A program made the position numbers and the translations under genes. The notes below the pieces were generated by a model, which ran no database searches, was not told the DNA's origin, and saw only the letters and a list, made by a program, of their open reading frames with translations. From assembly GCA_021852265.1 (NCBI GenBank), contig JAJZNV010000016.1:189-64188 (forward strand): 64,000 nt of DNA, given 5' to 3'. The stretch is from Nanobdellota archaeon. GTDB taxonomy: Archaea; Nanobdellota; Nanobdellia; Parvarchaeales; Parvarchaeaceae. Each line of letters starts with the position of its first letter. The stretch's first letter is position 1. This document shows positions 3,681 through 21,982 of the stretch, piece after piece.

Positions 3681-4256
3681 TTAGATAAGATAGCTGACTA
3701 GAAAGCCCACAATTGCACTCAATAATGCGATAGTTGCGCCTATCCCGATGGTTTTGAATCCATTTTTGAGTTTCTCATGTAGATGTTCCTGGTGGTACGC
3801 TCCTATAAAACCTAATATAATTAGAGTCATGGTCAATGAGGTTATACTTGCAGGTTCTATGCCGGCACTTCCCATAAAATAAAATGCAATGTACGGAGCT
3901 AACACTATCAAGCTGCCTACTAATGTGAATACAAAACTTTGGGTAGCGTACCTTATACTTTTCTCCTGTTTGCTTTTTTTTAGTTTAATGGGATTATAAT
4001 CTTTTAGGAAGAGTATTTCCTTATACTCTAGAAGCTGCTGGCCCGTACTGAAGGTTTCCGCATTGTAAGTCGCGAACATGTTAGATAGCGCATTCGTAAG
4101 CCCTCCAAGCAATATCGATGCAAATGTGAGGCTATACGCATGAAAGAAGGAGATACCCAACGAAAGTCCTATACCTACAAATAAACCATCACTTATCCCC
4201 AATATAGTGTATCTGGCCTTAGCCCTTTCCATGAGATGTGACAGTTGCCTCGTCAA
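3681..4256 (-). CDS. VIT1/CCC1-family (DUF125-like) integral membrane protein
   Basis: N-terminal ILGISDGLFVGIGLSLG resembles the VIT-family GxxDGL motif. There are about 5 hydrophobic segments. Overlaps the upstream DUF211 gene by 38 nt. Confidence 0.5.
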   Translation of the reverse strand: MTRQLSHLMERAKARYTILGISDGLFVGIGLSLGISFFHAYSLTFASILLGGLTNALSNMFATYNAETFSTGQQLLEYKEILFLKDYNPIKLKKSKQEKSIRYATQSFVFTLVGSLIVLAPYIAFYFMGSAGIEPASITSLTMTLIILGFIGAYHQEHLHEKLKNGFKTIGIGATIALLSAIVGFLVSYLI

Positions 4257-4485
4257 GGCTATTTATCGCAGCACCGCGTTCTTTCATTGCTTTCTGTACT
4301 CCATGAAAGTCTATTTTAGTGCCCTCAATGGTTATCTTAAGCCCCTCGGTCCTTATGTCGACTTCCTCAACTTTTATAGAAACCGAACCATTTTTAACAT
4401 TTTTGGATATATCAGACGCCAAATCGATTATGTTATATTCACCGACAGGTTTTACCGCATCGATTACTAGTCTGCTTAAACGCAT
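4219..4485 (-). CDS. DUF211-family small protein
   Basis: MRLSRLVIDAVKPVGEYNIIDLA... resembles the archaeal DUF211 N-terminus (RRLVLDVLKPH...), and the 88-aa size fits. A TATA-like ttataaa lies on this strand about 27 nt upstream. Confidence 0.55.
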   Translation of the reverse strand: MRLSRLVIDAVKPVGEYNIIDLASDISKNVKNGSVSIKVEEVDIRTEGLKITIEGTKIDFHGVQKAMKERGAAINSLDEATVTSHGKG

Positions 4486-4537: not shown

Positions 4538-4545
4538 TTTAAATA
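4538..4545 (+). promoter_or_regulatory. TATA box (TTTAAATA) for the leaderless transcript of 4567 gene
   Basis: Ends 22 nt before the ATG at 4567, the same spacing as at many other genes in the window. Confidence 0.5.
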
Positions 4546-4566
4546 CGAAAAAATAGTTTTACTCTT

Positions 4567-4923
4567 ATGGATACATTTAAAAAGGCACAGGGGTTGCCAA
4601 TAAATACCATTATACTCATAGCAATAGGTCTTCTGATTCTAGTCCTTTTTATAACCTTTGTTTTGGGTGGATTCGGCACTCTAGGAAGCGGCACAGGTGG
4701 CGGCAGTCAGGCTTTGGCGGCATTCCAAACCCAGTGTCAGACTTACTGTACCGATGCACAACAAACACTTAGCACTCCAACGCAGTGGTGTAGTGCAACT
4801 GACAGAATATCGAATACTCTTTATAACTGTGCAAATACCACATCTATCGGTGTTTCTTGTAAGATTGGCTCAAAGACATATGGGCCTACAACTGGTACCA
4901 ATGGTTTACCTAAAAATTGTTAA
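4567..4923 (+). CDS. small secreted Cys-rich protein with pilin-like N-terminus
   Basis: MDTFKKAQGLPINTIILIAIGLLILVLFITFVLGG has a short basic N-terminus followed by a long hydrophobic helix, like a class III signal. The mature part has 6 Cys and is T/S/G rich. Confidence 0.45.
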   Translation: MDTFKKAQGLPINTIILIAIGLLILVLFITFVLGGFGTLGSGTGGGSQALAAFQTQCQTYCTDAQQTLSTPTQWCSATDRISNTLYNCANTTSIGVSCKIGSKTYGPTTGTNGLPKNC

Positions 4924-4982
4924 AAAATTTAAAATGGTTCGGTAGAGTGCAGATTTTTATACCTTTATATTAATATTATATT

Positions 4983-5609
4983 ATGACCCCTGCAAGACAG
5001 ACTTCATCCACGATTTTAGGAATTATCCCGATTATAATAATTGTGATAGTTATACTCTACTCATTTAGCCACAATTTTCTCATAATTGATACCTGTCCAG
5101 GAAGTCATGTTCTTATAGTCACAAGCACCGCAAGACAGTGCTTCCCGTCTTTTAATCAGACAGTCATTGTTAATGGCACCCCATATACCTTAAATTCATC
5201 CTTCGCAATTTCAGATGGCAGTGTAATCCCATTGGATTTCAGATTTTTAGGAGAAAATCCACTTCTTTATATCTGGAACCAAAACAAGTCTGAAAACCCT
5301 GGCTCTTATGTCTTCTTGACCATACCGGACACGTTTAAAATGCATATGCAGTATGTCTCAAATGTTTCCACCGAATTTATAATAATGAACAGCTCTCAGT
5401 ATGTTCGCTGGGTAAATTCCAGAGGGACAAATTTCAAATATGTAAGCTCGTACAGCGGAAGAACTATCTCAACATGGTTTAATGAGAGTGCAGGCTGTGC
5501 CGGTTACGTTGCGATAATAAAAGCAGTTTCCAACTCCGCTTTCTTTATAGCACCGAATGAAACGGCGTTATATGACCCCGCCCCGAATGCTACCGGTGCA
5601 TGCGCCTAA
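4983..5609 (+). CDS. membrane-anchored or secreted protein with many N-x-S/T sequons
   Basis: N-terminal hydrophobic segment ILGIIPIIIIVIVILYSF and numerous NxS/T sites. A TATA-like tttttata ends 22 nt upstream of the ATG. Confidence 0.5.
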   Translation: MTPARQTSSTILGIIPIIIIVIVILYSFSHNFLIIDTCPGSHVLIVTSTARQCFPSFNQTVIVNGTPYTLNSSFAISDGSVIPLDFRFLGENPLLYIWNQNKSENPGSYVFLTIPDTFKMHMQYVSNVSTEFIIMNSSQYVRWVNSRGTNFKYVSSYSGRTISTWFNESAGCAGYVAIIKAVSNSAFFIAPNETALYDPAPNATGACA

Positions 5610-5629
5610 AATCGGAAACAAAAGTCAGT

Positions 5630-5637
5630 TTTAAATT
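5630..5637 (+). promoter_or_regulatory. TATA box (TTTAAATT) for the 5659-8142 operon
   Basis: Ends 22 nt upstream of the ATG at 5659. Confidence 0.5.
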
Positions 5638-5658
5638 CTTATAGATACATACAGACAC

Positions 5659-6279
5659 ATGGAAATGAATGTCTTTGACGCCGTAAATGAGATTAAAAAA
5701 TTCTACGACGGTACCGGCTCACTGTCAAATCTCCGAGGGATAATACCTGCCAAAAAACTAGATATAAGTTTAGAGCATTTGGACGGTGCTGTAAAAATAA
5801 AAGTATCACATCCTCTTCGGCTTAAAATTGAAGAAATTTACAAAATCCTTCTTAGACTTTTCATGGTCAGCTCAACTGATTTAACAGTGGAATTTATTAT
5901 GAACGGAAAGCACAAGAGTGTTTCCAAAAAATTTGGGGCAGATGAAAGCATAGCAGAGACAATAAATGACCTCTTGGACTTGCCGCATGAGCAGCTATTG
6001 GATATAATAGTAGAGACCGAGTATTTTAAATTGGTGTCGGTAAAGGATCTTAGTGATACAATTTCTATCATAATGAAGAAAGGCGATCAGAAAACGCTGT
6101 TCAGAAGTCTCATGAATTATCTATTCCCTTTTATTTCGGTATCTGCGGATAAATCTGCAAAGGAAGAAATAATATTTGATCAACAGAGAGACGAATTAGT
6201 AGTTGATGTAGCGCTGAATGTCGATGGTGCATCATTAGGAGTAAAGTCTAAGAAAGTTAGGCTATTAGATAGGGTATGA
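5659..6279 (+). CDS. hypothetical soluble protein, first gene of the KaiC-like/GTPase operon
   Basis: 206-codon ORF whose stop overlaps the next start (ATGA, 6276..6279). No recognisable motif. Confidence 0.5.
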   Translation: MEMNVFDAVNEIKKFYDGTGSLSNLRGIIPAKKLDISLEHLDGAVKIKVSHPLRLKIEEIYKILLRLFMVSSTDLTVEFIMNGKHKSVSKKFGADESIAETINDLLDLPHEQLLDIIVETEYFKLVSVKDLSDTISIIMKKGDQKTLFRSLMNYLFPFISVSADKSAKEEIIFDQQRDELVVDVALNVDGASLGVKSKKVRLLDRV

Positions 6280-6941
6280 ACGGGATGGCAACAGGATTTC
6301 CGTCTTTCGATAATTTGAGCGGCGGATTGGAGCCACGAAAGACGTATCTCTTAAACGGCGATAAGGAAAGCGGCAAGGAATATTTCGCGTATAAGCTGGC
6401 CGTAAATTCACTCGCAGCAAAAACTGGCGTTGTGTACATCACAACAAATAAGTCTTATACGGACCTTATATCTGAGTTCAACTCGAGATCCCTGCCCATA
6501 TCACAGTATCTTGGTTCTACTCTGAAGATATTAGACAGCTTCACAAGGAGTATATCTCCTACTGCCACCGATAACCAGTATACTAAGATATTGAATGGTC
6601 CATTGGATTTAACTGGTTTATCCGTCGCCCTCTCCAATGCGAATGCCGAATTTCTTAAGGATGCACGACCGGTAATAAACGTTTTTGATTCGGTTTCCTC
6701 CCTTCTCTTATACAACAATCCAGCAACATTTTTCAGATTTATGCAGTTTATATGCGGCCGGGCTAAGATGTCTGGAGTAATGACCATTTTTCTATTGGAT
6801 AACCAGATGCATGCAAATGAGGTTAACGAGACTATAAAGTCCTTAACCGACGCGATAATATCACTGAAGGTCCAAGACGGTAAAAGGTATTTTAGGCTTA
6901 CTGGTACCGCAAAAGAGGTCTTAAACTGGGAGGAATTATAA
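6276..6941 (+). CDS. KaiC/RecA-superfamily (FlaH/ArlH-like) protein with degenerate Walker A
   Basis: The layout follows single-domain KaiC-like ATPases: GFPSFDNLSGGLEPRKTYLLNGDKESGKEYFAYKLA, a Walker B-like VINVFDSVSSLL, and MTIFLLDNQ. Walker A reads GDKESGKE, with E where S/T is expected. Confidence 0.65.
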   Translation: MNGMATGFPSFDNLSGGLEPRKTYLLNGDKESGKEYFAYKLAVNSLAAKTGVVYITTNKSYTDLISEFNSRSLPISQYLGSTLKILDSFTRSISPTATDNQYTKILNGPLDLTGLSVALSNANAEFLKDARPVINVFDSVSSLLLYNNPATFFRFMQFICGRAKMSGVMTIFLLDNQMHANEVNETIKSLTDAIISLKVQDGKRYFRLTGTAKEVLNWEEL

Positions 6942-6942
6942 G

Positions 6943-8142
6943 ATGAAAGATCCTCTATTTGGAATAGGAAAACTCGATGATGAGCTGACAGGCATACCAG
7001 ATAAAAAAATAGTGCTTTTGTCGGCGTCTCCGTCCGTCGGAAACGAGGTTTTCGGATACCAGATAATACATAATAATCTGCTACATAAGAATAAAGTCCT
7101 ATTATACCTGAACAGGACCTCACCGCAGTCATACTTGACGGAAATGAAAGACTATGATTTTATAGCGGATGCAAATCTTACAATAATAGATTCATACAGC
7201 AACATGACGGGGATACAGTCAAGCAGCACCTCTAATACTGTAATTGTTGAAAATCCATCCGATGGTGAAGAGATAAAAAAGAAATTAAGCGCTGAATTAG
7301 AAAAGGGTTATGATCTCGTCTTGATAGACTCGTTATCGCTGGTAATAGATGCCTTTGACTTTAATTATGCAATGTCGATAATCGACCTTGTGAAGTCAAA
7401 ACTCGATATTAAGAAGGGCTCATCCGTGCTCTTATTTACCGACTGGGATTATGGGACTAATGAGATAAGCTCCCTCGTCTCAAAGGTAAACGCAGAAGTG
7501 GAGATAAGAGGGATAGAAAAAAGGGTGATATTCGGACAGTATTTTGCCGTGATAAAATGTGATTGGGTCAAAGAGAAAAATTTCTCGTCAGTGCTGTTCA
7601 AATCCGTAAAACCTGGCGGAATAAAAATCTATTTCCCGAAAGTATTAATAACCGGACCAACAGATGCCGGTAAGACATCGTTTATACACAGTGCCTCAAG
7701 GGATGCTGTAAGCGTTGACAGGCTCGGCGGCACCATTGCACTGGACCATGGCAACCTGGATTTTGAAGGCTATAAAGCAGACCTTTTCGGCACTCCTGGC
7801 CAAGAAAGGTTTGATCCACTCCTAAAATTATTGGGAGGAGAAGCGATAGGTGTAATATTAATTGTCGACGCGACAAAACCGGATCAATTCCCGAGAGCGA
7901 TAGAAATGTTAAGAAAAACCGAGAGTTATGGATTGCCAATAGTTGTAGTGGCGAATAAGGCAAATCTCCCGGGTGCACTTTCGGTTGAAGAGCTAAAAGA
8001 TAAGCTTCATCTCGGAAAGGACGCGCCGCTGGTGCAGACCATCGCAGAAGACCTGTCACATATCGACCCGAATGAGCCGACAAAATTAAAAAAGGAGGGA
8101 GTAGAACAAGCGTTGAGAGCGTTGTTTAAGCAATTGACATAA
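6943..8142 (+). CDS. fusion protein: degenerate KaiC/FlaH-like domain + small Ras/MglA/CvnD-like GTPase
   Basis: The N-terminal half is KaiC-like: GIGKLDDELTGIPDKKIVLLSASPSVGNEVFGYQII (P-loop Lys replaced by Asn), YDLVLIDSLSLVI, VLLFTDW. The C-terminal half carries G1 GPTDAGKTSF, G3 DLFGTPGQERF and a G4-like VVANKAN. Confidence 0.7.
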   Translation: MKDPLFGIGKLDDELTGIPDKKIVLLSASPSVGNEVFGYQIIHNNLLHKNKVLLYLNRTSPQSYLTEMKDYDFIADANLTIIDSYSNMTGIQSSSTSNTVIVENPSDGEEIKKKLSAELEKGYDLVLIDSLSLVIDAFDFNYAMSIIDLVKSKLDIKKGSSVLLFTDWDYGTNEISSLVSKVNAEVEIRGIEKRVIFGQYFAVIKCDWVKEKNFSSVLFKSVKPGGIKIYFPKVLITGPTDAGKTSFIHSASRDAVSVDRLGGTIALDHGNLDFEGYKADLFGTPGQERFDPLLKLLGGEAIGVILIVDATKPDQFPRAIEMLRKTESYGLPIVVVANKANLPGALSVEELKDKLHLGKDAPLVQTIAEDLSHIDPNEPTKLKKEGVEQALRALFKQLT

Positions 8143-8144
8143 TG

Positions 8145-8152
8145 CTTAAATT
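8145..8152 (+). promoter_or_regulatory. TATA box (CTTAAATT) for the Roadblock gene
   Basis: Ends 22 nt upstream of the ATG at 8174. Confidence 0.45.
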
Positions 8153-8173
8153 GCGCACGCACAAACAATAGTT

Positions 8174-8548
8174 ATGGCAACAAAATCAGAATCACTGAGA
8201 CTAGTACTAGAGAATCTCGGTAATGTTGGTGGAATAAAAGCTTCTGCAGTTATATCGGTTGACGGACTGCCCATAGTGTCACTTATGCCACAAGATGTCG
8301 ATCCCAATAATTTTGCAGCAATGCTTGCTTCAATGGTCGGTGCCGCCGAAACAGCAATAAAGTCTCTTGGCTCCAAGAATATAATCGATAGCGTAATCGC
8401 AGAATCCAGAGATGTGCGAGTCATAGCTGTAAAAGCGGGTGAAGATGCTATCCTTACCGTAATGGTCGATCCTGCTACCAATTATGGTCTCGTGCGGCTG
8501 GAAGCGAAAAGATCATCGGACCAGATAGCTAAGATAATGAAAGAGTAA
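8174..8548 (+). CDS. Roadblock/LC7 (MglB/CvnB-like) domain protein
   Basis: LENLGNVGGIKASAVISVDGLPIVS is the typical Roadblock/LC7 N-terminal motif. The 124-aa size is typical and the gene is adjacent to a small GTPase. Confidence 0.75.
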   Translation: MATKSESLRLVLENLGNVGGIKASAVISVDGLPIVSLMPQDVDPNNFAAMLASMVGAAETAIKSLGSKNIIDSVIAESRDVRVIAVKAGEDAILTVMVDPATNYGLVRLEAKRSSDQIAKIMKE

Positions 8549-8667
8549 AAAATACATATTTCGAAATATCTACCTTAGTGTATATTAAAACCAATTATTC
8601 TTTTGCATTGCACTATATACAAACTCTGCTAACTGGATATCAAATTTATCCCTAAGAGAACTATAAG

Positions 8668-8925
8668 CTAAGACTTTAACGATTCTAATAGCTCATGCAT
8701 TTTATCAATGTTATCGGCTTTCACGTCTTCCATGAGCGCCAATTTCTCTTTCTTCCTAAGCTTTACCTTTGCGCCGCTCTTCAGAACTTTTATAGATTCT
8801 TTATTTATGTCTGCAGGCTGGGCGCCTTCCCTTCGCTCCTTAAGTTCCTTCTTTGTGTATTTTACATGGTAGCTGCCAAAGTCTACCTCTTTTTTTATGT
8901 TTAAAAACCTGTATGTGCTTTCCAT
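8668..8925 (-). CDS. hypothetical lysine-rich small protein
   Basis: 85-codon ORF with gtttaaaa on its strand 23 nt upstream of the ATG. Confidence 0.5.
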   Translation of the reverse strand: MESTYRFLNIKKEVDFGSYHVKYTKKELKERREGAQPADINKESIKVLKSGAKVKLRKKEKLALMEDVKADNIDKMHELLESLKS

Positions 8926-9031
8926 ATATTACTAATCAAAAAACTTGCTTTTAAACGTTTCGGTTTGAAATAGTTTTACCGTAAATTTTAACTTAAGCTT
9001 TAAATTCTCACCGATAGATAAGATAAAAATT

Positions 9032-9116
9032 GCTGAGGTCGCGTAACCTGGCAGCGCGTAGCCCTGGAAAGGCTATGGGCACTTCGCCCTTGTGAGTTCA
9101 AATCTCACCCTCAGCG
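9032..9116 (+). tRNA. tRNA-Ser (anticodon GGA), class II with long variable arm
   Basis: Manual fold: acceptor GCTGAGG/CCTCAGC, anticodon stem TAGCC/GGCTA, loop CTGGAAA, long variable arm TGGGCACTTCGCCCTTG, T arm GTGAG-TTCAAAT-CTCAC, discriminator G. Confidence 0.85.
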
Positions 9117-9157
9117 TTTTTTTATTTTTTATTCTAATAAGATATCCTTGTAGTGCA

Positions 9158-11065
9158 TCAAATTTGCAATGCCCTTGTCCTTATTTTTTGTTCCAGATCT
9201 TTAATAAAATCTGCTAAATTAACCCCATATCTTGTTTTTCCATCTAATGTCCTTACCGCTATCCTATTTGCAGATTCCTCCTTATCCCCTACAATTAGGA
9301 CATATGGTATTTTCATCAGCTGACTTTCTCTAATCTTGTATTCCAGAGTAGAATTACTCTCGTTAATGTCGACTCTTATGCCTGCTTCAAAAAGTTTATC
9401 ATATACCTTTTTAGCATAAGCGTTGTTTCTTTCCGTTAGAGAAAGTATCCTGACCTGCTTAGGAGAAATCCATAACGGAAGTTCTCCACCTCCGTTGGAC
9501 AGTATTATCCCCATAAATCTGCCTATTGATCCCATCACTGAGCGGTGTACTACTACAGGTACGTGTTCTTTGTTGTCAGATCCTACATATCTCACATCAA
9601 AGCGATTGGCCAAGTTGAAATCTACTTGGAATGTGGATGCTGCATATGCAGATTCCGGTTTTCCAGTGAAATCAAGAACATAAATGTCTATTTTTGGTCC
9701 ATAAAAGGCTCCATCGCCTTCTTTTATAGTATATTCATAGCCGTTTTTCTCCAATGCATTCTTAAGCGCCTTCTCAGCTTTGTCCCAAACTTCGTCTGAT
9801 CCTATCCTTTGTTTGGGTCTAGTGGCTAAGGTCATTATTGGAGTCAACTTAAATAGTGAATAAACCTCCTTCAGCATATCGAAAAGCTTTAATATCTCGC
9901 CTTCTATTTGGTCTTCTGTCACATAAATATGTGCATCATTTTGTTCCAGTATCCTTGTTCGAAGAAGTCCATCGAGAGCCCCTTCGAGTTCATATCTGTG
10001 CAGGAATCCATAATCAGATAGCCGTAATGGCAAATCACGGTAGCTTCTTGTCTTTGATTTGAATACGACAGTTGAAAATGGACAATTCATCGGTTTTAGA
10101 GCATATTCATCTTCTTCAACTGCGAATGGAGAAGCACGGTACATATTCTCACGATATTTTTCGTAGTGTCCACTGATTTTCCAGACTTCTGATTTTGCTA
10201 TTATAGGGGTTATTATCTCTTGATAGCCATATTTTCTGTCCATCTCTTTGGCAAGTTTCAAAAGTTCGTTGTAAATTATAGTGCCATCCGGTAAGAAGAA
10301 AGGGGAGCCAGGCGACCAGCTGGATATTTCGAAAAGCTCAAGTTCTCTGCCTATCTTCTTATGGTCGTGTTTTGAGCGCTCAGCCTCGAATTTGTTATAC
10401 TCATCCAATTCATTTTTTGAGGGGAATGAAACCCCATAAATCCTTGTCAATACTTCCCTTTTGCTGTCGCCTCTCCAGTATGCACCAGCTACTTTTAGTA
10501 GTTTTACAGCCTTGATATATCTCGTAGAAGGTACGTGGGGACCGCGACAGATATCCATGAATTCTCCAGTCTCGTAAACAGTTATTGGCAATTCCGCGTC
10601 TTCAAGTATCTCTGCTTTGAATGTGTTTCCTTTGAAAAGTTCCAAAGCTTCTTTTTTAGATACCTCCTTCCTAAGGAATTTAGAATCTTCGTCAACGATT
10701 TTCTTCATTTCCTTTTCAATTTTAGGTAGATCATTATCACCAATCTTAAGGTTGTAAAAATCATAATAGAATCCTTCATCTATAGCCGGTCCCAGGGTGA
10801 GCAACGCTTCGGGGTAAAGTCTTTTTATAGCGGCAGCCATTATATGGGCACTAGAATGCCAGAAAACTTCCTTTCCTTCCCTAGAATCAAATTTAAGGAA
10901 CTCTATTTTTGTGCTTTTATTTATCTTCCTAGTCAGGTCGATAAGTCCGGTATCTATCTTTGCAACTAAAACGTCTTTTAATTGCACCCCAATTGACTTT
11001 GCTATCTCTATAGGTGATACAGATGAGTCAAATTTTTTCTTCTCGTTGTTATAAGTTATCTCCAT
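9158..11065 (-). CDS. thrS: threonyl-tRNA synthetase (TGS + second additional domain + class II core + anticodon-binding domain)
   Basis: TGS-like N-terminus MEITYNNEKKKF, HSSAHIMAAAIKRLYPE (editing/SAD motif) and class II core motifs. I chose the ATG at 11065 over the track's GTG at 11083 because a TATA-like tttttattata lies about 20 nt upstream of it. Confidence 0.93.
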   Translation of the reverse strand: MEITYNNEKKKFDSSVSPIEIAKSIGVQLKDVLVAKIDTGLIDLTRKINKSTKIEFLKFDSREGKEVFWHSSAHIMAAAIKRLYPEALLTLGPAIDEGFYYDFYNLKIGDNDLPKIEKEMKKIVDEDSKFLRKEVSKKEALELFKGNTFKAEILEDAELPITVYETGEFMDICRGPHVPSTRYIKAVKLLKVAGAYWRGDSKREVLTRIYGVSFPSKNELDEYNKFEAERSKHDHKKIGRELELFEISSWSPGSPFFLPDGTIIYNELLKLAKEMDRKYGYQEIITPIIAKSEVWKISGHYEKYRENMYRASPFAVEEDEYALKPMNCPFSTVVFKSKTRSYRDLPLRLSDYGFLHRYELEGALDGLLRTRILEQNDAHIYVTEDQIEGEILKLFDMLKEVYSLFKLTPIMTLATRPKQRIGSDEVWDKAEKALKNALEKNGYEYTIKEGDGAFYGPKIDIYVLDFTGKPESAYAASTFQVDFNLANRFDVRYVGSDNKEHVPVVVHRSVMGSIGRFMGIILSNGGGELPLWISPKQVRILSLTERNNAYAKKVYDKLFEAGIRVDINESNSTLEYKIRESQLMKIPYVLIVGDKEESANRIAVRTLDGKTRYGVNLADFIKDLEQKIRTRALQI

Positions 11066-11155
11066 AAAAGATAGGGAATTCACTATAATAAAAACTTAAT
11101 GTCTGTGATAATCGGTATAATACTCTTATATTAATTTTCATAAAAAACGTTTTAT

Positions 11156-11860
11156 ATGATGGGTGTCTGTTATACGCTGTGTAATATGTTTGAAAAACGC
11201 CTTTTGCAGAATAGATTAGCGTGCTCTAATGGGCTAAAGTTAGAAGACCTGTTGGTAGGGTGTGTAGAACATGATTCCAGACACAGTGCACTCCTGCCTG
11301 AAGATATAATTGAAGTGCAAGGGGGAGTATACCACGTTGAATTGCCCAAGAGCCTAAACTATATCGCAAGTAGTGCGCTAAGTTATGTTAACGAATATCA
11401 CGGGCCAGACAGGTTGCAAAGATATCTGAAATTTATCCGAAAAAATTTTGTAAAAGATTATACTGAAAAATTTGATTATAAGGCTTATTGTGGGAAAGTT
11501 CTAAATATGGATCGGATGATATCTATGGATTGTATGAATTCCACAGATGCAACGATACTTCTGAGTGCTATCCTGAATTTAGATCCTGAGATAAAAAATG
11601 CTGGATTTAAGAGCTTTTGTGTTGCGGGAGAACGCCTGCAATCTGGCAAACTCTACAGTACACTGGGCATAAAGCTTAAATCTAGCTCAAATACAATATT
11701 AATCCTTCCGTCCACTGGAGAGATTGAGTATGTGATGAAAAAGGTATTGCCTGCTTCTCTCTCGGGAACACATATCAGTGCATATGAGTCCCTTGAGGAT
11801 GGAAGACTTCTGATGATAGCACACGTCAATAAGATATACCGTAAGCGCAGTACAAATTAA
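11156..11860 (+). CDS. hypothetical protein
   Basis: 234-codon ORF with TATA-like ttatatta ending 23 nt upstream. There is a weak resemblance to transglutaminase-like Cys proteases (DCMNSTDATILLSAIL) that I cannot support further. Confidence 0.5.
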   Translation: MMGVCYTLCNMFEKRLLQNRLACSNGLKLEDLLVGCVEHDSRHSALLPEDIIEVQGGVYHVELPKSLNYIASSALSYVNEYHGPDRLQRYLKFIRKNFVKDYTEKFDYKAYCGKVLNMDRMISMDCMNSTDATILLSAILNLDPEIKNAGFKSFCVAGERLQSGKLYSTLGIKLKSSSNTILILPSTGEIEYVMKKVLPASLSGTHISAYESLEDGRLLMIAHVNKIYRKRSTN

Positions 11861-11870
11861 GATAATCATC

Positions 11871-12419
11871 ATGGTTTCTAAAATACCTTACATAACTGGA
11901 AATGAGTTGAAATTCAATGAAGCCAAGGAGATATTGGGCGAAATTATAGAGTGGGTCAAAATTGACCTGCCAGAAATACAGTCCCTGAATTCTAAAGAGG
12001 TACTTGTAGCAAAGGTAAAAGAGGCCTCAAAAAGGAAAGATAATTTTATAGTTGAGGATATCTCCTTTAAGCTTCGTTGTATCAATGGTCTCCCAGGAAC
12101 GTTAATAAAATGGTTCTTGAGTACTCTCGGTGCAAAGGGGATTTATAATTTAGCCAAAAAATACGGTGATTTCAGCGCCGAAGCGACTTGTGCAGTATGC
12201 TACGTAAGAAATAAGAGTGAGATGTTCTTTTTCGAATCTACAGTGCCAGGAAAAATAATTAAGCCGAAAGAAGATTCACTTCACGGTTGGGATAGCTTAT
12301 TTGAAGTGGGCGATTTAAAAAAGTCATTCTCAGAGTTAACCATACAGGAAAAGATCCTAGTTAGCCCCCGAGGAATAGCACTTAAGAAAGTGAAGGCCTT
12401 TTTGGAGTCTAGCTTGTAG
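11871..12419 (+). CDS. non-canonical purine NTP pyrophosphatase (Ham1/RdgB/ITPase family)
   Basis: ITGNELKFNEAKEIL, EDISFKL..INGLPGTLIKWF, HGWDSLF and a C-terminal VSPRGIAL follow the Ham1 motif order. Confidence 0.85.
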   Translation: MVSKIPYITGNELKFNEAKEILGEIIEWVKIDLPEIQSLNSKEVLVAKVKEASKRKDNFIVEDISFKLRCINGLPGTLIKWFLSTLGAKGIYNLAKKYGDFSAEATCAVCYVRNKSEMFFFESTVPGKIIKPKEDSLHGWDSLFEVGDLKKSFSELTIQEKILVSPRGIALKKVKAFLESSL

Positions 12420-16870: not shown

Positions 16871-17455
16871 CTATACCTTATAGAGAATGCACGCAGGTAA
16901 CCGTACCTTGTCTTTTCTGTGGAATGATGCAATGTTGGGTATCCACAGTTCTCCTAATTCGTACACTGACAATTCGTTCTCTCTGGCTATATTCTGTATC
17001 TCCCTATTTAACTTATAGATAAAGAAGAATGGCGTAGCACTATCCTTAAGCTTTGTTATGAATGCTCTTATACGAAAAGTACTTTGGAATCCAAAAGGTG
17101 GATTGGAGATTATAGTATCATATCTGTCCGTAACATCGAAAAAATCTTTCCGATACGCTTTACAATTGGCAATGTTTATCTTCTCTACGTTTGAGTTCGC
17201 GAGTTCTACCATTCTTTTGTCGATGTCGTACATATCGACGGTTCCCGCCCCCAACAATGCTGCGCCTATTCCAAGTATTCCATTTCCGCAGCCAAAGTCA
17301 GCTATTTTTTTACCTTTTAGGCACCCGAAAGAATCGACCACTAATAAGAAATTCACCGCCGTTGATATATCTGTGGAATACTGCTCTAGATGTATCTTGG
17401 GCTCGTTTATAGCCCCGAGTTCTTTCAATTTTATTGAGAGTTCTATCCTATCCAT
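16871..17455 (-). CDS. SAM-dependent N6-adenine-type methyltransferase (METTL5 / predicted RNA methylase family)
   Basis: IADFGCGNGILGIGAALLGA (motif I), DID, and ISNPPFG (NPPF catalytic motif). The start ATG at 17455 overlaps the gatE stop (ATGGATAG). Confidence 0.75.
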   Translation of the reverse strand: MDRIELSIKLKELGAINEPKIHLEQYSTDISTAVNFLLVVDSFGCLKGKKIADFGCGNGILGIGAALLGAGTVDMYDIDKRMVELANSNVEKINIANCKAYRKDFFDVTDRYDTIISNPPFGFQSTFRIRAFITKLKDSATPFFFIYKLNREIQNIARENELSVYELGELWIPNIASFHRKDKVRLPACILYKV

Positions 17456-19289
17456 TTTTAAGCAATTTTGAAGCAATCTCGTAGGCTTCACTGGCGTCAA
17501 ACGAAAATCCGAATTTGTCTCTTAGGTTCGTTATCAGAGTATCATATCGTGAGAATCCGCTGGATATAAGCCTTTTTATTTCTGCTTCAAGCGTTGCCCG
17601 GTCCTTCCTTTGTAGAGAATACCTGTTTATTATCCCCTCTACGCTTTGGCTCTTTTTTAAGGCCAGACCCTCAAAAATAAATCTTGCTGCGTCCTTTGCC
17701 AAGTAACCGCTGGCTATTTTTGCCAGCACATTTTCTTCATCGTGTTCGTTTATATCGAAACCGAATTTCCTCTTGATATAGCGGTAATCCTCGACCATCA
17801 CTGAGATTATCGTATTGAACGGAAGCTTGAGTTTCTCCCTTATCTTTACTGCCTGGCTTAACTTGTTTACGCCTATCAGAAGGTCAAGGAACTCGTCACT
17901 AATCCCATATTTCTCTTTTATCGTTTCCGCATCAAATCCTAGGTATTCAGAAGCCTCCTTGAGCAGTCTTTCATCAACTTCCAGGATGGGCAGGTCTGTT
18001 TCCACATACATCCTGTCCTTGCCGCCAAGTGGTCTAAGAAAGCTTGTCGAATTATCTGAATTGACTACGCGCACTTCTGCGGGCACTGCTGTAAGGAGTT
18101 CTCTTAGCCGTTTTTTTATCACTTCTTCCACTGCGCCCCCCTGTTGTATAGAGCATATAGAAAACAGAAATGCATCGTCTTTCTCACATTCTAATTTTGT
18201 AGCAATCCCAGTTTTTTCTTTATCATCTATCCCATAAGCAGGGAGTTCATCAGAATGTATTACCCCGCAGCCCTCTTTTACTTTCAGGTAATCGCTGATT
18301 TCAGTTCCGAATCTCTTATTCTCAGATAATTCGGTGCCCAATGCGCCCTTGAACCCCCTCAATTTGCCACCGAAAACGGCTTTGCCATCGCGTAATGCGT
18401 TTTTCACCATATTTGAACCGGAGTTGACCAGCATTTCACTCAAATCCTGTAAACGTATGGAATCTACATTGTTTAACAGGTAAGCTTTTTCTTTTTCTAT
18501 TTTTATCAGGGAAGCTTGGCGCTTTCCTTCATTGATTATCGCTTTATCCATCTCCCGTATGTTCTGGAAGCCCTTTAATTCGACACGGCTTCCACCCTCT
18601 ATCGAAAGATTAACATCCTGGCGTATGGTTCCTATCCCCCTGCGTACGTTGAATAACCTGGTAAATCTGCCGAATGCAAGAGCTATGGATTTGGCTTCAT
18701 TTTCATCGGTTTCCATTACATCGGTAGCAATTTCGATTAGAGGCATCCCTAGTCTGTCCAACTTGTAAGTGACGGTCTTCTCTGTCTTTTCGGCTTCCAG
18801 GTTCGGACCCGTTTCTTCCCTAGCCGAATCTTCTTCAAGTGCCACAGATGCGATACCGATAGTACTTTTACCGGCTTTGAATTTCCCGTTTAAACCGATT
18901 ATTGCAGTGCGTTGAAAGCCGCTCGTATTCGACCCATTGACTATCGTCTTTCTCATAAAAATAAGTTTTCTGAAAAGCGATGCATTTAGCGCGTTGGCAA
19001 TCTGAAAAGCGACCTCCTGTGAAGTCTTATCCGGCTCGTGTGGAGGCTCCTCATCTATGTCAACTAAGCAATCAGAATCATTGAATATCTGGTATACTAT
19101 CCGTTTAGCCGTTCCTGTCTCAAACTCTGCGCTCTTGTCTATCTTACCACTCTCTCCAAAAGACGGCCGGAAGACACGTACGATTTCGCTGTCACCTTTC
19201 TTTTCCTCGTGGATCTTGGGAGTACATCTACAGAACAGTTTCCCGCTATTGATCTGTACGTGCCATTCAAATCCGCATCTGACCTTCAT
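17448..19289 (-). CDS. gatE: Glu-tRNA(Gln) amidotransferase subunit E
   Basis: MKVRCGFEWHVQINSGKLFCRC is the GatE/GatB-type N-terminus. The 613-aa length fits, and the start overlaps the upstream gatD stop by 4 nt. Confidence 0.93.
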   Translation of the reverse strand: MKVRCGFEWHVQINSGKLFCRCTPKIHEEKKGDSEIVRVFRPSFGESGKIDKSAEFETGTAKRIVYQIFNDSDCLVDIDEEPPHEPDKTSQEVAFQIANALNASLFRKLIFMRKTIVNGSNTSGFQRTAIIGLNGKFKAGKSTIGIASVALEEDSAREETGPNLEAEKTEKTVTYKLDRLGMPLIEIATDVMETDENEAKSIALAFGRFTRLFNVRRGIGTIRQDVNLSIEGGSRVELKGFQNIREMDKAIINEGKRQASLIKIEKEKAYLLNNVDSIRLQDLSEMLVNSGSNMVKNALRDGKAVFGGKLRGFKGALGTELSENKRFGTEISDYLKVKEGCGVIHSDELPAYGIDDKEKTGIATKLECEKDDAFLFSICSIQQGGAVEEVIKKRLRELLTAVPAEVRVVNSDNSTSFLRPLGGKDRMYVETDLPILEVDERLLKEASEYLGFDAETIKEKYGISDEFLDLLIGVNKLSQAVKIREKLKLPFNTIISVMVEDYRYIKRKFGFDINEHDEENVLAKIASGYLAKDAARFIFEGLALKKSQSVEGIINRYSLQRKDRATLEAEIKRLISSGFSRYDTLITNLRDKFGFSFDASEAYEIASKLLKNG

Positions 19290-20593
19290 ATAAGAAACTC
19301 ACTTAACTCATTCTTATCCCCAATTTCTCCCGCAACTGAACGAAGCATGTTCTCCCTAACCTTCTCTATATCTCTGGTTTGACCCAATACAAATATCAGT
19401 TTTGAAAACGCCGTCTCACTAAGCATATTGCCTACATAAATGACATTTTTGAATTTTGAGAGCTCCCTAAGACGACTATAAACGAAGGTACTAGTTGGCC
19501 CGTAAACAGTCTGGGTCGTTATTATTACCGGCACAGATTTTTTATTTGCATAAGACAGTGCATCACGCATGCTCTTGTCCGATAGCGGTAAGTTACCAAA
19601 ACCAGTACCTTCTATTACTATGCCATGTGCACCCCCGCTTACGGCATCTTGTATAGGTGCACCCTTCATACCAGGATAACTCAACAGCATCACAACTTTA
19701 TCATCAATCTTTGTGTTTAAGACCGTCTCTCCACTTTTAGGCCTATGCGGTGAAAGGTCAATTATATCTCCGTTTAGATGAACTTCTGAGAGAGGCATTG
19801 AATTTATCGGTCTAAACGCATCTCTTCTCTCGGAATGCATCTTTCTGGTGCGGTTTCCTCTAAGGAGGAAATTGTAATTGTCATTTAGGTTTGCATGCAT
19901 ACATATAACTGATTCGCCCCCTTCCCATTTTGATGCTGCAATCGCTGATAGGAGCAGGTTCGTGGATGCGTCTGTTGAGCCTCTATCTAGACTTCTCTGC
20001 GCACCAGTGAACACCACTGGCACGGAAAGGGGATTTAGCATGAATGAGAGCGCGGAGGATATAAAATGCATAGTGTCCGTACCAGTAGTGACTATTATGC
20101 CCTTTGAGCCGCGGTTTATAGCATCATAAGCTGCCTTTGCCATCTTTACCCAGTCAGATGGCGCAATATCCTCTGATAATTTGCTCATAAGCGTATTGAC
20201 TTCGACATTACCATAATCTTTTAAGCCCGGCGCTATCTGGAAGTAATACTCTGGTGGAACGGTAGGTGATACTCCCCCGGTTTTATAATCAATTTTTGAG
20301 GAGATAGTTCCTCCTGTAGTTATCAGGGTCAAATCAGAATTTTCTATTGAGAAAGCAGGTGTCTCTTTACCGTGATTCAGCTTTGTAATAGGAGCTCTGC
20401 TTATCAGCTTCATTGAGGAAACATTCTCTTCCCCCATTGCGACATCATATCCAGATTTTAACTTTAGTATAACCAATTTTTTTTCAGCGTCACGTCTTAT
20501 AAATTCGCCATGGAAGATTCTTTTGTTGAACATCACTTCTATTGAGTCTCCCAACTTTAGCGATTTTAGAAGCTGCGCTATACTTGCTTTCAT
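19286..20593 (-). CDS. gatD: Glu-tRNA(Gln) amidotransferase subunit D (asparaginase-like)
   Basis: The asparaginase motifs TTGGTISS and TTGTDTM are present, and the gene is coupled to gatE. Confidence 0.93.
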   Translation of the reverse strand: MKASIAQLLKSLKLGDSIEVMFNKRIFHGEFIRRDAEKKLVILKLKSGYDVAMGEENVSSMKLISRAPITKLNHGKETPAFSIENSDLTLITTGGTISSKIDYKTGGVSPTVPPEYYFQIAPGLKDYGNVEVNTLMSKLSEDIAPSDWVKMAKAAYDAINRGSKGIIVTTGTDTMHFISSALSFMLNPLSVPVVFTGAQRSLDRGSTDASTNLLLSAIAASKWEGGESVICMHANLNDNYNFLLRGNRTRKMHSERRDAFRPINSMPLSEVHLNGDIIDLSPHRPKSGETVLNTKIDDKVVMLLSYPGMKGAPIQDAVSGGAHGIVIEGTGFGNLPLSDKSMRDALSYANKKSVPVIITTQTVYGPTSTFVYSRLRELSKFKNVIYVGNMLSETAFSKLIFVLGQTRDIEKVRENMLRSVAGEIGDKNELSEFLI

Positions 20594-20899
20594 ACATAGA
20601 ATTATAAGTTATACATATTTTAACTTTTTTTATGGCAGTGTAAAAATCTACGTGTCAGTCTGTTGCATTACGTCGGTTTTATCATTAAACTACAGTTCAA
20701 TAATCTTTTTAAATACAAGAAGAGTAAAATTATTATAAATAAAATTTAAAATTTGAATGTTTTGGGGAAAACATCCAAATTTTTAATCGTTAGTTTGTAA
20801 GTATTTGGGAACACTTACTTTTCTTTATAAAAATATAAGACAAGATGGGAATATAAAGCTTTTGGTTTTAGATTTTCATCTGTCTAAAGGAGGGAAAAA

Positions 20900-21982
20900 A
20901 TGGTAATGGATCTGTTAGTGGAGAGCGCGCTCAAAGCTAGCAAAGAAAATGTAAACGAACCATTGTTTAACCAGGCCCTTATAAAGGTTTTAGGGGTTGG
21001 CGGCGGTGGAAATAACATGGCCAGTTGGCTTTATAAGAAGGGCGTAAAAGGCGCCGAGGTCGTAATAGCCAATACAGACCAGGTTCAGTTGAACGCAAGG
21101 CATGCAGACAAAAAAATCCTTATAGGAAAGGAACTTACCCGTGGACTTGGTGCTGGCGGTTTTCCTGCAAAGGGAAAAGCTGCAGCAGAAGAATCTGCGA
21201 GAGAGCTTAAAGACTCGCTCAGGGGAGCTGATTTAGTATTCGTTTGCGCCGGTTTGGGCGGCGGGACAGGTACTGGTGCGGCACCTGTTGTAGCAAAGCT
21301 TGCTAAGGAATCGGGGGCAATAGTAATAAGCACTGTAACAATGCCTTTTAAGACGGAACGAAAACGTGTTGAGAATGCAGAAACCGGTCTGGCCGAATTA
21401 AGGACTAATTCAGATACGGTAATTGTAATCGACAACAACAGACTCGTAAGCATGGCTGGTAACCTTCCGGTAGACCAGGCATTTAATGTAGCGAATGAAG
21501 TGGTAGCCACGATGATAAAAGGTATCGTAGAGACGATATCAGATGCGGCAGCCTTAGTACACCTCGACTTCGCGGACATTAAGGCGATAATGAACCAAGG
21601 TGGTGTATCCGTTATTGGAATAGGCGAAACCGATGCATCTGATTCAAGGGTAAACGAGGTCGTAAGGAGAGCCCTTAACAACCCATTACTTGATGTCAGC
21701 TACAAAGGAGCCAAAGGTGCACTGATACACATAACGGGCGGTCCCGACCTTACTTTATCTGAAGTAAACCAGATAGGTGAGTTAGCGACTCAGTCTCTGG
21801 ACCCTGACGCAGTAGTCATATGGGGTGCCAGGGTAGATGAAGGACTAACTGGTAAACTGAGGGTAATGACCATAATAACTGGCGTAAGTTCGCCGTACTT
21901 GTTGGGTCAGGAGGAGCTAACGACTCTTTCAAAAACAACAGGAGCAATAAACCAGGAACTCGGTATCGAGGTACTGAGGTAG
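20900..21982 (+). CDS. ftsZ: cell division GTPase FtsZ (paralog 1)
   Basis: GVGGGGNNM, the tubulin signature [15 protein letters not shown], and NTD. A GGAGGG Shine-Dalgarno lies at 20889..20894. Confidence 0.95.
   Translation: MVMDLLVESALKASKENVNEPLFNQALIKVLGVGGGGNNMASWLYKKGVKGAEVVIANTDQVQLNARHADKKILIGKELTRGLGAGGFPAKGKAAAEESARELKDSLRGADLVFVCAGLGGGTGTGAAPVVAKLAKESGAIVISTVTMPFKTERKRVENAETGLAELRTNSDTVIVIDNNRLVSMAGNLPVDQAFNVANEVVATMIKGIVETISDAAALVHLDFADIKAIMNQGGVSVIGIGETDASDSRVNEVVRRALNNPLLDVSYKGAKGALIHITGGPDLTLSEVNQIGELATQSLDPDAVVIWGARVDEGLTGKLRVMTIITGVSSPYLLGQEELTTLSKTTGAINQELGIEVLR

Follow-up and report, generated by a model that had tools for sequence, protein, structure and literature searches.

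What is the task of an archaeal protein in which a degenerate KaiC-like domain runs directly into a small GTPase, and does the pilin-like gene encoded nearby define that task? The question is raised by a 64,000-nucleotide (nt) stretch from a Nanobdellota archaeon of the Parvarchaeaceae (contig JAJZNV010000016.1, positions 189–64,188; hereafter the window, numbered from its first letter). According to the list of open reading frames (ORFs), six co-directional plus-strand genes lie between 4567 and 8548, with minus-strand genes on either side. A preliminary description, made from the letters alone, saw here a pilin-like gene and an anchored glycoprotein, followed by two pseudo-KaiC proteins, one fused to a small GTPase, and a Roadblock/LC7 partner, and suggested that they might form a switch for pilus assembly or polarity. 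All six ORFs were recovered at the positions it gave. The weight of the evidence falls on the last three of them (6276–8548), a triad that in our judgement very probably works as one functional unit. We further consider it reasonably probable that these genes encode a conserved archaeal three-protein nucleoside triphosphatase (NTPase) switch, whose output in this organism may be directed to a surface filament or adhesin. The three genes and the parts of the fusion protein are as follows (aa, amino acids).

6276–6941, + strand: stand-alone single-domain KaiC-like protein of the DUF7504 type, 221 aa (Pfam)
6943–8142, + strand: KaiC–GTPase fusion, 399 aa (ORF call)
6943–7620, + strand: inactivated KaiC-like domain (iKaiC), fusion residues 1–226 (family profile, Foldseek)
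7621–8142, + strand: small Ras-superfamily GTPase domain, fusion residues 227–399 (motifs, TIGR00231)
7654–7677, + strand: G1 motif GPTDAGKT (translation)
7786–7803, + strand: G3 motif FGTPGQ, without Asp, as in MglA (translation)
7954–7965, + strand: G4 motif NKAN (translation)
8174–8548, + strand: Roadblock/LC7 protein, MglB homologue, 124 aa (Robl_LC7 profile)

The fusion and its two partners

The N-terminal half of the fusion is difficult to recognize from a single sequence, which scores 24.0 bits against the Pfam KaiC model, just under the cutoff of 26.6. A profile of 21 family members, however, matches PH0284 (E = 1.4e-23), KaiC (E = 1.9e-22) and also PH0186. The AlphaFold2 (AF2) model of the fusion, with a mean local confidence (pLDDT) of 87 and a predicted template-modelling (TM) score (pTM) of 0.76 for the whole chain, tells the same story: in Foldseek its N-domain superposes on PH0284 with a TM of 0.82 and a root-mean-square deviation (rmsd) of 2.8 Å, on SSO2452 with a TM of 0.80 and on FlaH (4yds) with a TM of 0.76. 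By both homology and fold, therefore, this half belongs to the KaiC/RecA superfamily. What it lacks is the canonical P-loop. The equivalent segment, SPSVGNE (7027–7047), has neither the Lys nor the Thr, and GK[ST] is absent from this loop in all 21 aligned sequences and in all of the 80 genome homologues over which motifs were counted; the loop is instead of a PGVE type (consensus PGVE..F).

The C-terminal half, in turn, is a small GTPase of the Ras superfamily, scoring 39.3 bits against Arf (cutoff 22.3), 29.7 against Ras and 49.7 against TIGR00231 (cutoff 42.5), and carrying recognizable G1, G3 and G4 motifs. No other part of the window's module has a canonical NTPase site. The homologues retain G1 and G3 without exception (80/80), the latter as FGTPGQ or WGTPGQ. 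The window's G4 motif is NKAN, whereas G4 is NKxD in 76/80 genome relatives; Asn at this position is shared by only 4/80 genome loci, although alignment A1 shows it in many homologues from DPANN metagenomes. An Asp-to-Asn change in the G4 of Ras-type GTPases alters base specificity, and thus the nucleotide preference of the window's GTPase may differ. The two halves are joined without a linker, the C-terminal hairpin of the KaiC domain leading into GTPase strand 1 through a conserved PGGIKxYxPK-ILVTGP.

The architecture is not an accident of assembly. A stop or frameshift near the junction, which the preliminary description had named as a way in which its proposal could fail, is excluded because 80 genome loci, as well as hundreds of protein clusters, contain the same continuous ORF of ~390–415 aa. 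In addition, the window's fusion shares 100% identity with a ‘GTP-binding protein’ that occurs, on contigs of up to 311 kb, in a Candidatus Parvarchaeota metagenome-assembled genome (MAG). The fusion of a degenerate KaiC-like domain to a small GTPase is thus an old, conserved architecture.

The stand-alone protein encoded immediately upstream is a clearer KaiC relative, with 55.8 bits against Pfam KaiC (PF06745; cutoff 26.6) and 50.8 bits against DUF7504 (cutoff 27). Its Walker A, GDKESGKE, is encoded at 6357–6380; this motif, like SPSVGNE, is exact by translation as previously given. Upon alignment to the CI domain of KaiC, GTSGTGKT pairs with GDKESGKE and FEET with TNKS. Of the features of a catalytic site (Walker A GxxxxGK[ST], a pair of catalytic Glu and the Walker B Asp), the protein retains the Walker A Lys together with the Walker B Asp; the Walker A Thr is replaced by Glu and both catalytic Glu by Asn-Lys, so the full set is not present. 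It probably binds nucleotide and does not hydrolyse it. In the partner KaiC family as a whole, the consensus Walker A is GPPMSGK[E/D/S], that is GxxxxGK[E/D/S], and the Walker B position is occupied by Asp or Asn in roughly equal numbers. With the catalytic residues lost in one protein and the P-loop Lys lost in the other, the term ‘pseudo-KaiC’ was a fair one for both.

The third member scores 52.2 bits against Robl_LC7 (cutoff 23), and its PDB matches include an Asgard Roadblock (9jue, E = 4.9e-11) and Myxococcus xanthus MglB (6h5b, E = 1.1e-5), which bears out the proposed Roadblock/LC7 partner. The Thermus-type MglB equivalog model, on the other hand, gives 25 bits vs a cutoff of 200; judged by its sequence, the protein is therefore a Roadblock-family member and not an MglB equivalog. 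Taken together, profile searches of the individual domains agreed with every domain call that had been made by eye, the N-terminal half of the fusion being the one that needed a family profile.

Conservation and neighbours of the triad

The fusion is far from rare. Its full length is matched by 687 protein clusters; homologues at ~40% identity over 98% of the length reach Nanoarchaeota, Altiarchaeales, Archaeoglobus veneficus and Methanosarcinales, and a scan of one genome per species found a relative in at least 574 archaeal species. Across phyla the identity is 36–44%, with 49 invariant columns among 21 aligned sequences.

To survey the neighbourhoods, ORFs were called in 79 genome loci (L numbers below) and labelled by domain-specific hidden Markov models from the window proteins, triad counts being taken over the 77 loci with a full fusion. 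What recurs is a unit of a KaiC-like protein (~235 aa), an iKaiC–GTPase (~390 aa) and a Roadblock protein (~122 aa). All three genes lie at most four genes apart in 66/77 loci, and the fusion and Roadblock genes in 7 more, so that a Roadblock gene is near the fusion in 73/77. The order KaiC–fusion–Roadblock is found in Parvarchaeota, Methanosarcinales/ANME-2/Methanoperedens, Archaeoglobaceae, Hydrothermarchaeales and others, and the order Roadblock–fusion–KaiC(–KaiC) in Methanobacteria and Thermoplasmatota; Methanocellales and Altiarchaeota have the triad as well. Co-conservation of the gene set, on which the preliminary description had staked its proposal, therefore holds for the triad, but not for the pilin-like gene and the two genes after it (4983 and 5659), which are near the fusion only in eight Parvarchaeota loci of the 79. 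None of the three outcomes that the preliminary description had named as refuting its proposal, a missing KaiC/RecA fold among them, was observed.

Is the combination new? We found no published description of a KaiC–GTPase fusion in the searchable literature, and there is no dedicated NCBIfam or Pfam model for it; source annotations read ‘GTP-binding protein’ or ‘ATPase domain-containing protein’. To this extent the earlier statement that the combination was not known to be described stands, whereas any suggestion of rarity does not. The 2017 survey by Makarova, Galperin and Koonin, which lay outside that search, reportedly catalogues many iKaiC fusions, and earlier cataloguing of the iKaiC–GTPase architecture is possible. 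The family is in any case large, conserved and experimentally untouched.

Beyond the triad itself, the neighbours vary, and in most lineages they are sensor domains, TrmB regulators or housekeeping genes instead of pilins. Gene orders at five loci, from precomputed Pfam annotation, are the following.

L080: TrmB–fusion–x–x–V4R–Roadblock–PAS–KaiC (DUF7504)
L082: TrmB–fusion–Roadblock–FIST–HAMP–KaiC
L083: Roadblock–fusion–KaiC–GvpA–PAS (948 aa)–GvpO
L085, Archaeoglobus type: KaiC–fusion–Roadblock–protoglobin–V4R
L087: fusion–PAS–Roadblock–KaiC

Furthermore, a TrmB-like gene is directly 5′ of the fusion in L009 and L012, and a V4R protein adjoins the module in 10 genome loci. Such neighbours give the triad the profile of a signalling module of general use, whose inputs and outputs can be exchanged. 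Directly beside the Parvarchaeota triad there are no sensor or regulator genes.

Several of these loci deserve a word of their own. In the metagenomic L083 (9483–12933), the triad is followed by GvpA and GvpO, both gas-vesicle genes, and by a gene for a multi-PAS protein of 948 aa. L016, from a ‘Halobacteriota’ MAG, carries a tandem duplication at 6276–12161 of that locus, in the order KaiC–fusion–Roadblock–V4R–Roadblock–Roadblock–fusion–Roadblock–V4R. The V4R fold is related to that of TRAPP Bet3, of which it is the proposed ancestor, and Ragulator and longin-type regulators use the Roadblock fold. Genes for an Arf-like GTPase, a Roadblock protein and V4R share operons in non-Asgard loci (L016–L019, L024, L045, L052, L063, L080 and L085); in a 2024 study of Asgard proteins, such genes were generally outside operons (PMC10933270). 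Podar 2008, on V4R, does not mention GTPases.

Small proteins with three transmembrane segments (95–117 aa), often paired, are recurrent immediate neighbours of the module in Woesearchaeota, Nanoarchaeia, Hydrothermarchaeales and Altiarchaeota, as well as in one Methanobacteria-like locus (L009 8200–8526; L013 8209–8529; L044 5567–6266; L054 8546–9224; L068 5897–6537; L080 8214–8833), with none in the window; they could be membrane anchors or sensors. In Methanosarcinales the genes downstream of the triad are YhbY/CRM, S19e and a small PDCD5-like gene. Three to five genes separate S19e from the triad in Methanosarcinales/Methanoperedens, and likewise in a Thermoplasmatota locus (L014, L020, L028–L042, L063 and others; cluster C1), and it also adjoins a homologue of the 5659 protein in L090; this proximity may reflect an ancient shared neighbourhood.

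The Parvarchaeota cluster and its putative surface proteins

In Parvarchaeota the six-gene cluster remains intact across loci while its flanks change. The features of the window that surround the triad are listed here.

4219–4485, − strand: DUF211 gene, upstream flank
4539–4546, + strand: TATA-box-like TTTAAATA, 21–28 nt upstream of the pilin-like start codon (read directly)
4567–4923, + strand: pilin-like protein, 118 aa (ORF call; class-III-type signal or anchor, Cys-rich C-terminal part)
4983–5609, + strand: N-terminally anchored extracellular protein, 208 aa (ORF call, transmembrane segment, sequons)
5659–6279, + strand: cytoplasmic protein without a family match, 206 aa (ORF call; AF2 model all alpha+beta)
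8668–8925, − strand: 85-aa ORF, downstream flank

On the upstream side, a VIT1/TIGR00267-family membrane protein and the DUF211 protein (3681–4485, − strand) overlap by 38 nt, and several Parvarchaeota loci keep this pair (clusters C19 and C20) upstream of the six genes.

The junctions can be read directly. The stop of the 5659 gene overlaps the start of the 6276 gene in an ATGA at 6276–6279, and a single nucleotide, at 6942, separates the latter from the fusion gene; the proposed translational coupling of the three genes is thereby borne out at both joints. The spacer before the Roadblock gene is 31 nt. As for transcription, TTTAAATA would be a promoter element giving a leaderless or short-leader mRNA for the pilin-like gene, and similar boxes lie ~21–28 nt 5′ of the 4983 start (TTTATA) and of the 5659 start (TTTAAATT). 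The boxes before 4567, 4983 and 5659 suggest three transcription units, an inference that the high AT content of the genome keeps tentative.

At its N-terminus, KKAQG/LPINTIILIAIGLLILVLF, the 4567 protein is of class-III type: a short basic region and Q-G precede a 20-residue hydrophobic helix, and it has six Cys within its C-terminal 62 residues. The label ‘pilin-like, Cys-rich’ describes these features; there is no Pfam match, including Class_IIIsignal and Pilin_N at E ≤ 1. A database-wide search gave 57 homologue clusters, all from Parvarchaeota, two homologues bearing the JGI source names ‘UPF0333 family’ and ‘FlaG/FlaF family flagellin (archaellin)’. The N-terminal pattern recurs in further class-III-type proteins of the window (RSQS/ALEYMM...). 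The window also encodes four very large proteins of 1153–1517 aa on the + strand (22183–25644, 36753–41306, 49807–54096 and 54150–58610), two of which have class-III-type signal peptides (RSQS/ALEYMMTYGW... and NQAAVDFLISWGW...) and beta-propeller/lactonase-type repeats; it is possible that these large proteins serve this DPANN archaeon as surface adhesins with a pilin signal. The neighbouring 4983 protein, for which no Pfam or NCBIfam family matched, has one N-terminal transmembrane segment and nine N-x-S/T sequons, in keeping with its description as an anchored glycoprotein, as far as prediction goes. Its gene is kept beside the pilin-like gene in the Parvarchaeota loci L001–L008.

The 5659 protein is harder to place. 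It has no Pfam or NCBIfam match, and its confident AF2 model (pLDDT 89.8), with an alpha-beta-beta/alpha-beta-beta-beta repeat pattern, gave no significant PDB match in a structure search. A Roadblock-like fold was considered and found unconvincing (Asgard Roadblock2, probability 0.77, TM 0.27), as was an RNA triphosphatase/CYTH fold (TM only 0.14). A profile search of 1.84 billion proteins retrieved only 10 representatives, and the homologue clusters of a database-wide search (n = 32) are essentially Parvarchaeota-specific. Four distant homologues, from other small archaeal genomes (among loci L088–L092), have housekeeping genes around them and neither a KaiC nor a GTPase gene close by; if the homologue is denoted X, the gene orders are Sec61beta–X, Sec61beta–Tmk–X–S19e–L39e–L31e–prefoldin–FtsY and Tmk–X–POR–ThrRS. 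ThrRS also lies in the window, just beyond the six-gene cluster, and the simplest reading is that X...ThrRS is the older synteny, with the triad inserted between. Since its relatives are few and the distant ones live in housekeeping contexts without the triad, the 5659 protein was demoted from the core of the module and, despite the overlap of stop and start codons, may be a neighbour that resided there earlier.

How firm, then, is the link to pili? With a short basic N-terminus followed by one hydrophobic helix as the criterion for ‘pilin-like’ outside Parvarchaeota, such genes adjoin the module co-directionally in four lineages.

Parvarchaeota, L002–L008: pilin-like neighbour
Nanoarchaeia, L013: five pilin-like genes in a row between an iKaiC gene and the fusion
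Methanobacteria, L068–L075: two pilin-like genes each, with a weak DUF7266 match
High-GC Thermoplasmatota-like group, L057 and L067: large proteins that match DUF7289 and, weakly, Pilin_N

N-terminally anchored proteins with a single transmembrane segment make up 25/215 co-directional neighbours vs 14/405 other ORFs (odds ratio 3.7, Fisher p = 1.7e-4), but since the loci lack phylogenetic independence, four lineages is the fair tally. Because pilin-like genes accompany the module in these four, pili appear to be one output among several and not its defining function. The pilus switch first proposed is only partly supported: the adjacency to pilin-like genes holds, and a dedicated role is unlikely.

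Proposed mechanism, alternatives and known relatives

KaiC-family proteins act as rings, with nucleotide sites at the subunit interfaces. It is because of this behaviour that we picture the two KaiC-like units co-assembling into a RecA-type scaffold ring, which would carry the GTPase domains as a second tier. The Roadblock dimer would set the GTP/GDP state of that tier, by homology to MglA/MglB, in the role of GTPase-activating protein (GAP), and possibly also of guanine-nucleotide exchange factor. Sensors (PAS, FIST, HAMP, protoglobin and V4R), known as neighbours from gene context, would act on the complex, and lineage-specific partners such as TrmB regulators, pilin-like sets and gas-vesicle genes would read out its nucleotide state. 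In Parvarchaeota the triad would control how a surface filament or adhesin is produced or assembled; we advance this tentatively, as the likeliest local output yet one short of an even chance, since the persistent neighbours there are the pilin-like and anchored glycoprotein genes, with no adjacent sensors. A bolder and rather doubtful extension is that a pseudo-ATPase scaffold ring under an Arf-like GTPase ring represents a new two-tier ring switch which, together with Roadblock and V4R, would make up a GTPase-regulator toolkit of pre-eukaryotic age, established outside Asgard in Euryarchaeota and DPANN and coupling sensors to transcription and to surface or flotation structures.

The relationship to known systems can be specified. 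Like MglA/MglB of Myxococcus xanthus and Thermus thermophilus, the triad has its GTPase gene beside a Roadblock gene homologous to MglB, a G3 without the canonical Asp and with the Gln kept, and a link to type IV pilin-like genes in some lineages. Absence of the G3 Asp is a property of the MglA family, in which the archaeal ‘group 4’ proteins are the closest relatives of Arf/Sar (Wuichet and Sogaard-Andersen 2014, PMC4316618). With this G3 in 80/80 homologues and an MglB homologue co-encoded in 73/77 loci, the GTPase has the marks of that family, and the earlier MglA-like assignment holds in this respect; by sequence, however, its best PDB matches are Arf, Arl, Sar, Rab and IF2, with no MglA among the best 60. 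Unlike MglA, moreover, it is archaeal, fused to an inactivated KaiC-like domain and accompanied by a second KaiC-like partner, and RomR/RomX and Frz partners are absent. The Streptomyces conservon CvnA–D likewise combines a Roadblock protein (CvnB) and an MglA-family GTPase (CvnD) in a one-operon signalling module (PMC4316618). It is actinobacterial, however, and neither its histidine kinase CvnA nor CvnC (DUF742) occurs in the window cluster or the related loci inspected, KaiC-like proteins standing in the kinase's place. The triad would work in the manner of these two systems but does not appear to belong to either.

On the KaiC side, inactivated ‘iKaiC’ domains are among the archaeal KaiC-like signalling ATPases of Makarova, Galperin and Koonin 2017, as cited in PMC5847659, and there is a proposal that archaea use KaiC-like proteins as signalling hubs (cited in PMC5847659; PMC4858521). 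The triad resembles these ATPases in its single-domain KaiC/RecA fold (best matches PH0284, PH0186 and SSO2452), in having one copy inactivated and in its PAS, HAMP, other sensor and type IV pilus (T4P)-related neighbours, which fit the hub proposal. It departs from them in that its iKaiC is fused to a Ras-superfamily GTPase and paired with a GxxxxGK[E/D/S] KaiC paralogue. With ArlH/FlaH it shares the single-domain fold and the presence of pilin/archaellin-type genes nearby, whereas the NCBIfam ArlH/FlaH models give 34–37 bits vs cutoffs of 194–215 (34.1 and 20.4 bits vs 215 for the ArlH model NF052589), FlaH retains a canonical Walker A, and no ArlB/C/D/E/F/G/I/J genes are found in the window or related loci. 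The comparisons with FlaH/ArlH and CvnD in the preliminary description are thus useful as analogies, not as statements of membership. Cyanobacterial KaiC, finally, also has two tandem P-loop NTPase domains on one chain, but the second domain of the fusion is a Ras-like GTPase, the first is predicted to be unable to bind nucleotide canonically, and KaiA and KaiB are absent. The whole fusion matches KaiC chains in Foldseek at E ~1e-13, with a query-normalized TM (TMq) of 0.44–0.50 and an rmsd of 12–13 Å; the domain arrangement therefore differs.

Several observations weigh against the switch as we have drawn it. The ring and its second tier are modelled on the behaviour of the family and would have to hold for this pair. 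With G4 reading NKAN, guanine specificity of the window's GTPase is not certain, and its greater nearness to Arf/Arl/Sar than to bacterial MglA makes the analogy to the GAP activity of MglB an indirect one. The TATA-like boxes would also allow the pilin-like gene its own transcript, apart from the triad. Most of the 79 loci have no pilin-like neighbour, the triad of Methanosarcinales, for example, being beside housekeeping genes, and no T4P assembly ATPase or platform gene is present in the 64-kb window, where GxxxxGK[ST] outside the fusion occurs in only two ORFs, GatE and aIF2-gamma.

The last two points also count against another explanation, namely that the triad is everywhere a dedicated pilus regulator, its KaiC-like proteins acting in the manner of ArlH/FlaH on a T4P motor while the GTPase and Roadblock protein position or switch assembly. 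The co-directional pilin-like genes of four lineages, including the five that separate an iKaiC gene from the fusion in L013, are what one would expect from such a regulator; so is the close structural match of the fusion N-domain to FlaH, and KaiC-family ATPases and the Roadblock arCOG02603 are often found in archaeal T4P loci (Makarova et al. 2016, PMC4858521). Yet no PilB/ArlI or TadC/ArlJ gene adjoins the triad in any locus inspected, the neighbours extend to gas-vesicle genes, TrmB, PAS, FIST and protoglobin, and the score of 34 bits vs 215 argues against ArlH itself, leaving this an unlikely account.

Housekeeping neighbours raise a different possibility, in which the triad would be a GTPase complex of translation, ribosome biogenesis or protein targeting, and the surface genes incidental. 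YhbY/CRM, S19e and PDCD5-like genes are beside it in 16–25 Methanosarcinales loci, S19e is near it in the Thermoplasmatota L063, ThrRS is nearby in the window, and the distant homologues of the 5659 protein keep company with Sec61beta, S19e, L39e, L31e, prefoldin and SRP54/FtsY. These neighbours, however, are mostly separate transcription units or lineage-specific synteny, while the frequent tight or overlapping linkage of the triad is to sensors and TrmB; and many archaeal lineages lack the triad while others carry it in duplicate (two copies in L016), which is unlike a core factor. We regard a housekeeping role as improbable. Decay in a reduced DPANN genome is improbable to the point of being effectively refuted: although the losses in the 6276 protein (Walker A Thr and both catalytic Glu), the missing P-loop Lys of the fusion and the NKAN of G4 might each pass for degeneration, the same ‘defects’ are family-wide and conserved across phyla, within sequences that retain the identity and the invariant columns given above, and the ORFs are intact in all loci. 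Conservation of the losses on this scale points to a pseudo-enzyme function that has been maintained. The three-protein switch remains the reading we prefer.

Its interest lies in several directions. Archaeal signal transduction is poorly understood, and although KaiC-like proteins have been put forward as its hubs, we know of almost no archaeal KaiC-like signalling protein that has been characterised. The triad is a concrete unit in which a KaiC-like scaffold, a Ras-superfamily GTPase and an MglB-like regulator meet, linking two regulatory paradigms, and its presence in cultivated archaea (Archaeoglobus veneficus and Methanobacterium) makes biochemistry feasible. For DPANN such as Parvarchaeota, which depend on cell–cell contact, a switch tied to pilin and glycoprotein genes could bear on host attachment. 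Finally, the recurring GTPase, Roadblock and V4R operons are relevant to the origin of eukaryotic small-GTPase regulation.

Elsewhere in the window, the Walker A-containing ORF at 17448–19289 (− strand) and its 435-aa neighbour were considered as a pilus ATPase and its platform protein; they are GatE and GatD, the archaeal Glu-tRNA amidotransferase, and together with FtsZ on the + strand they make up an ordinary housekeeping region at 17448–21982.

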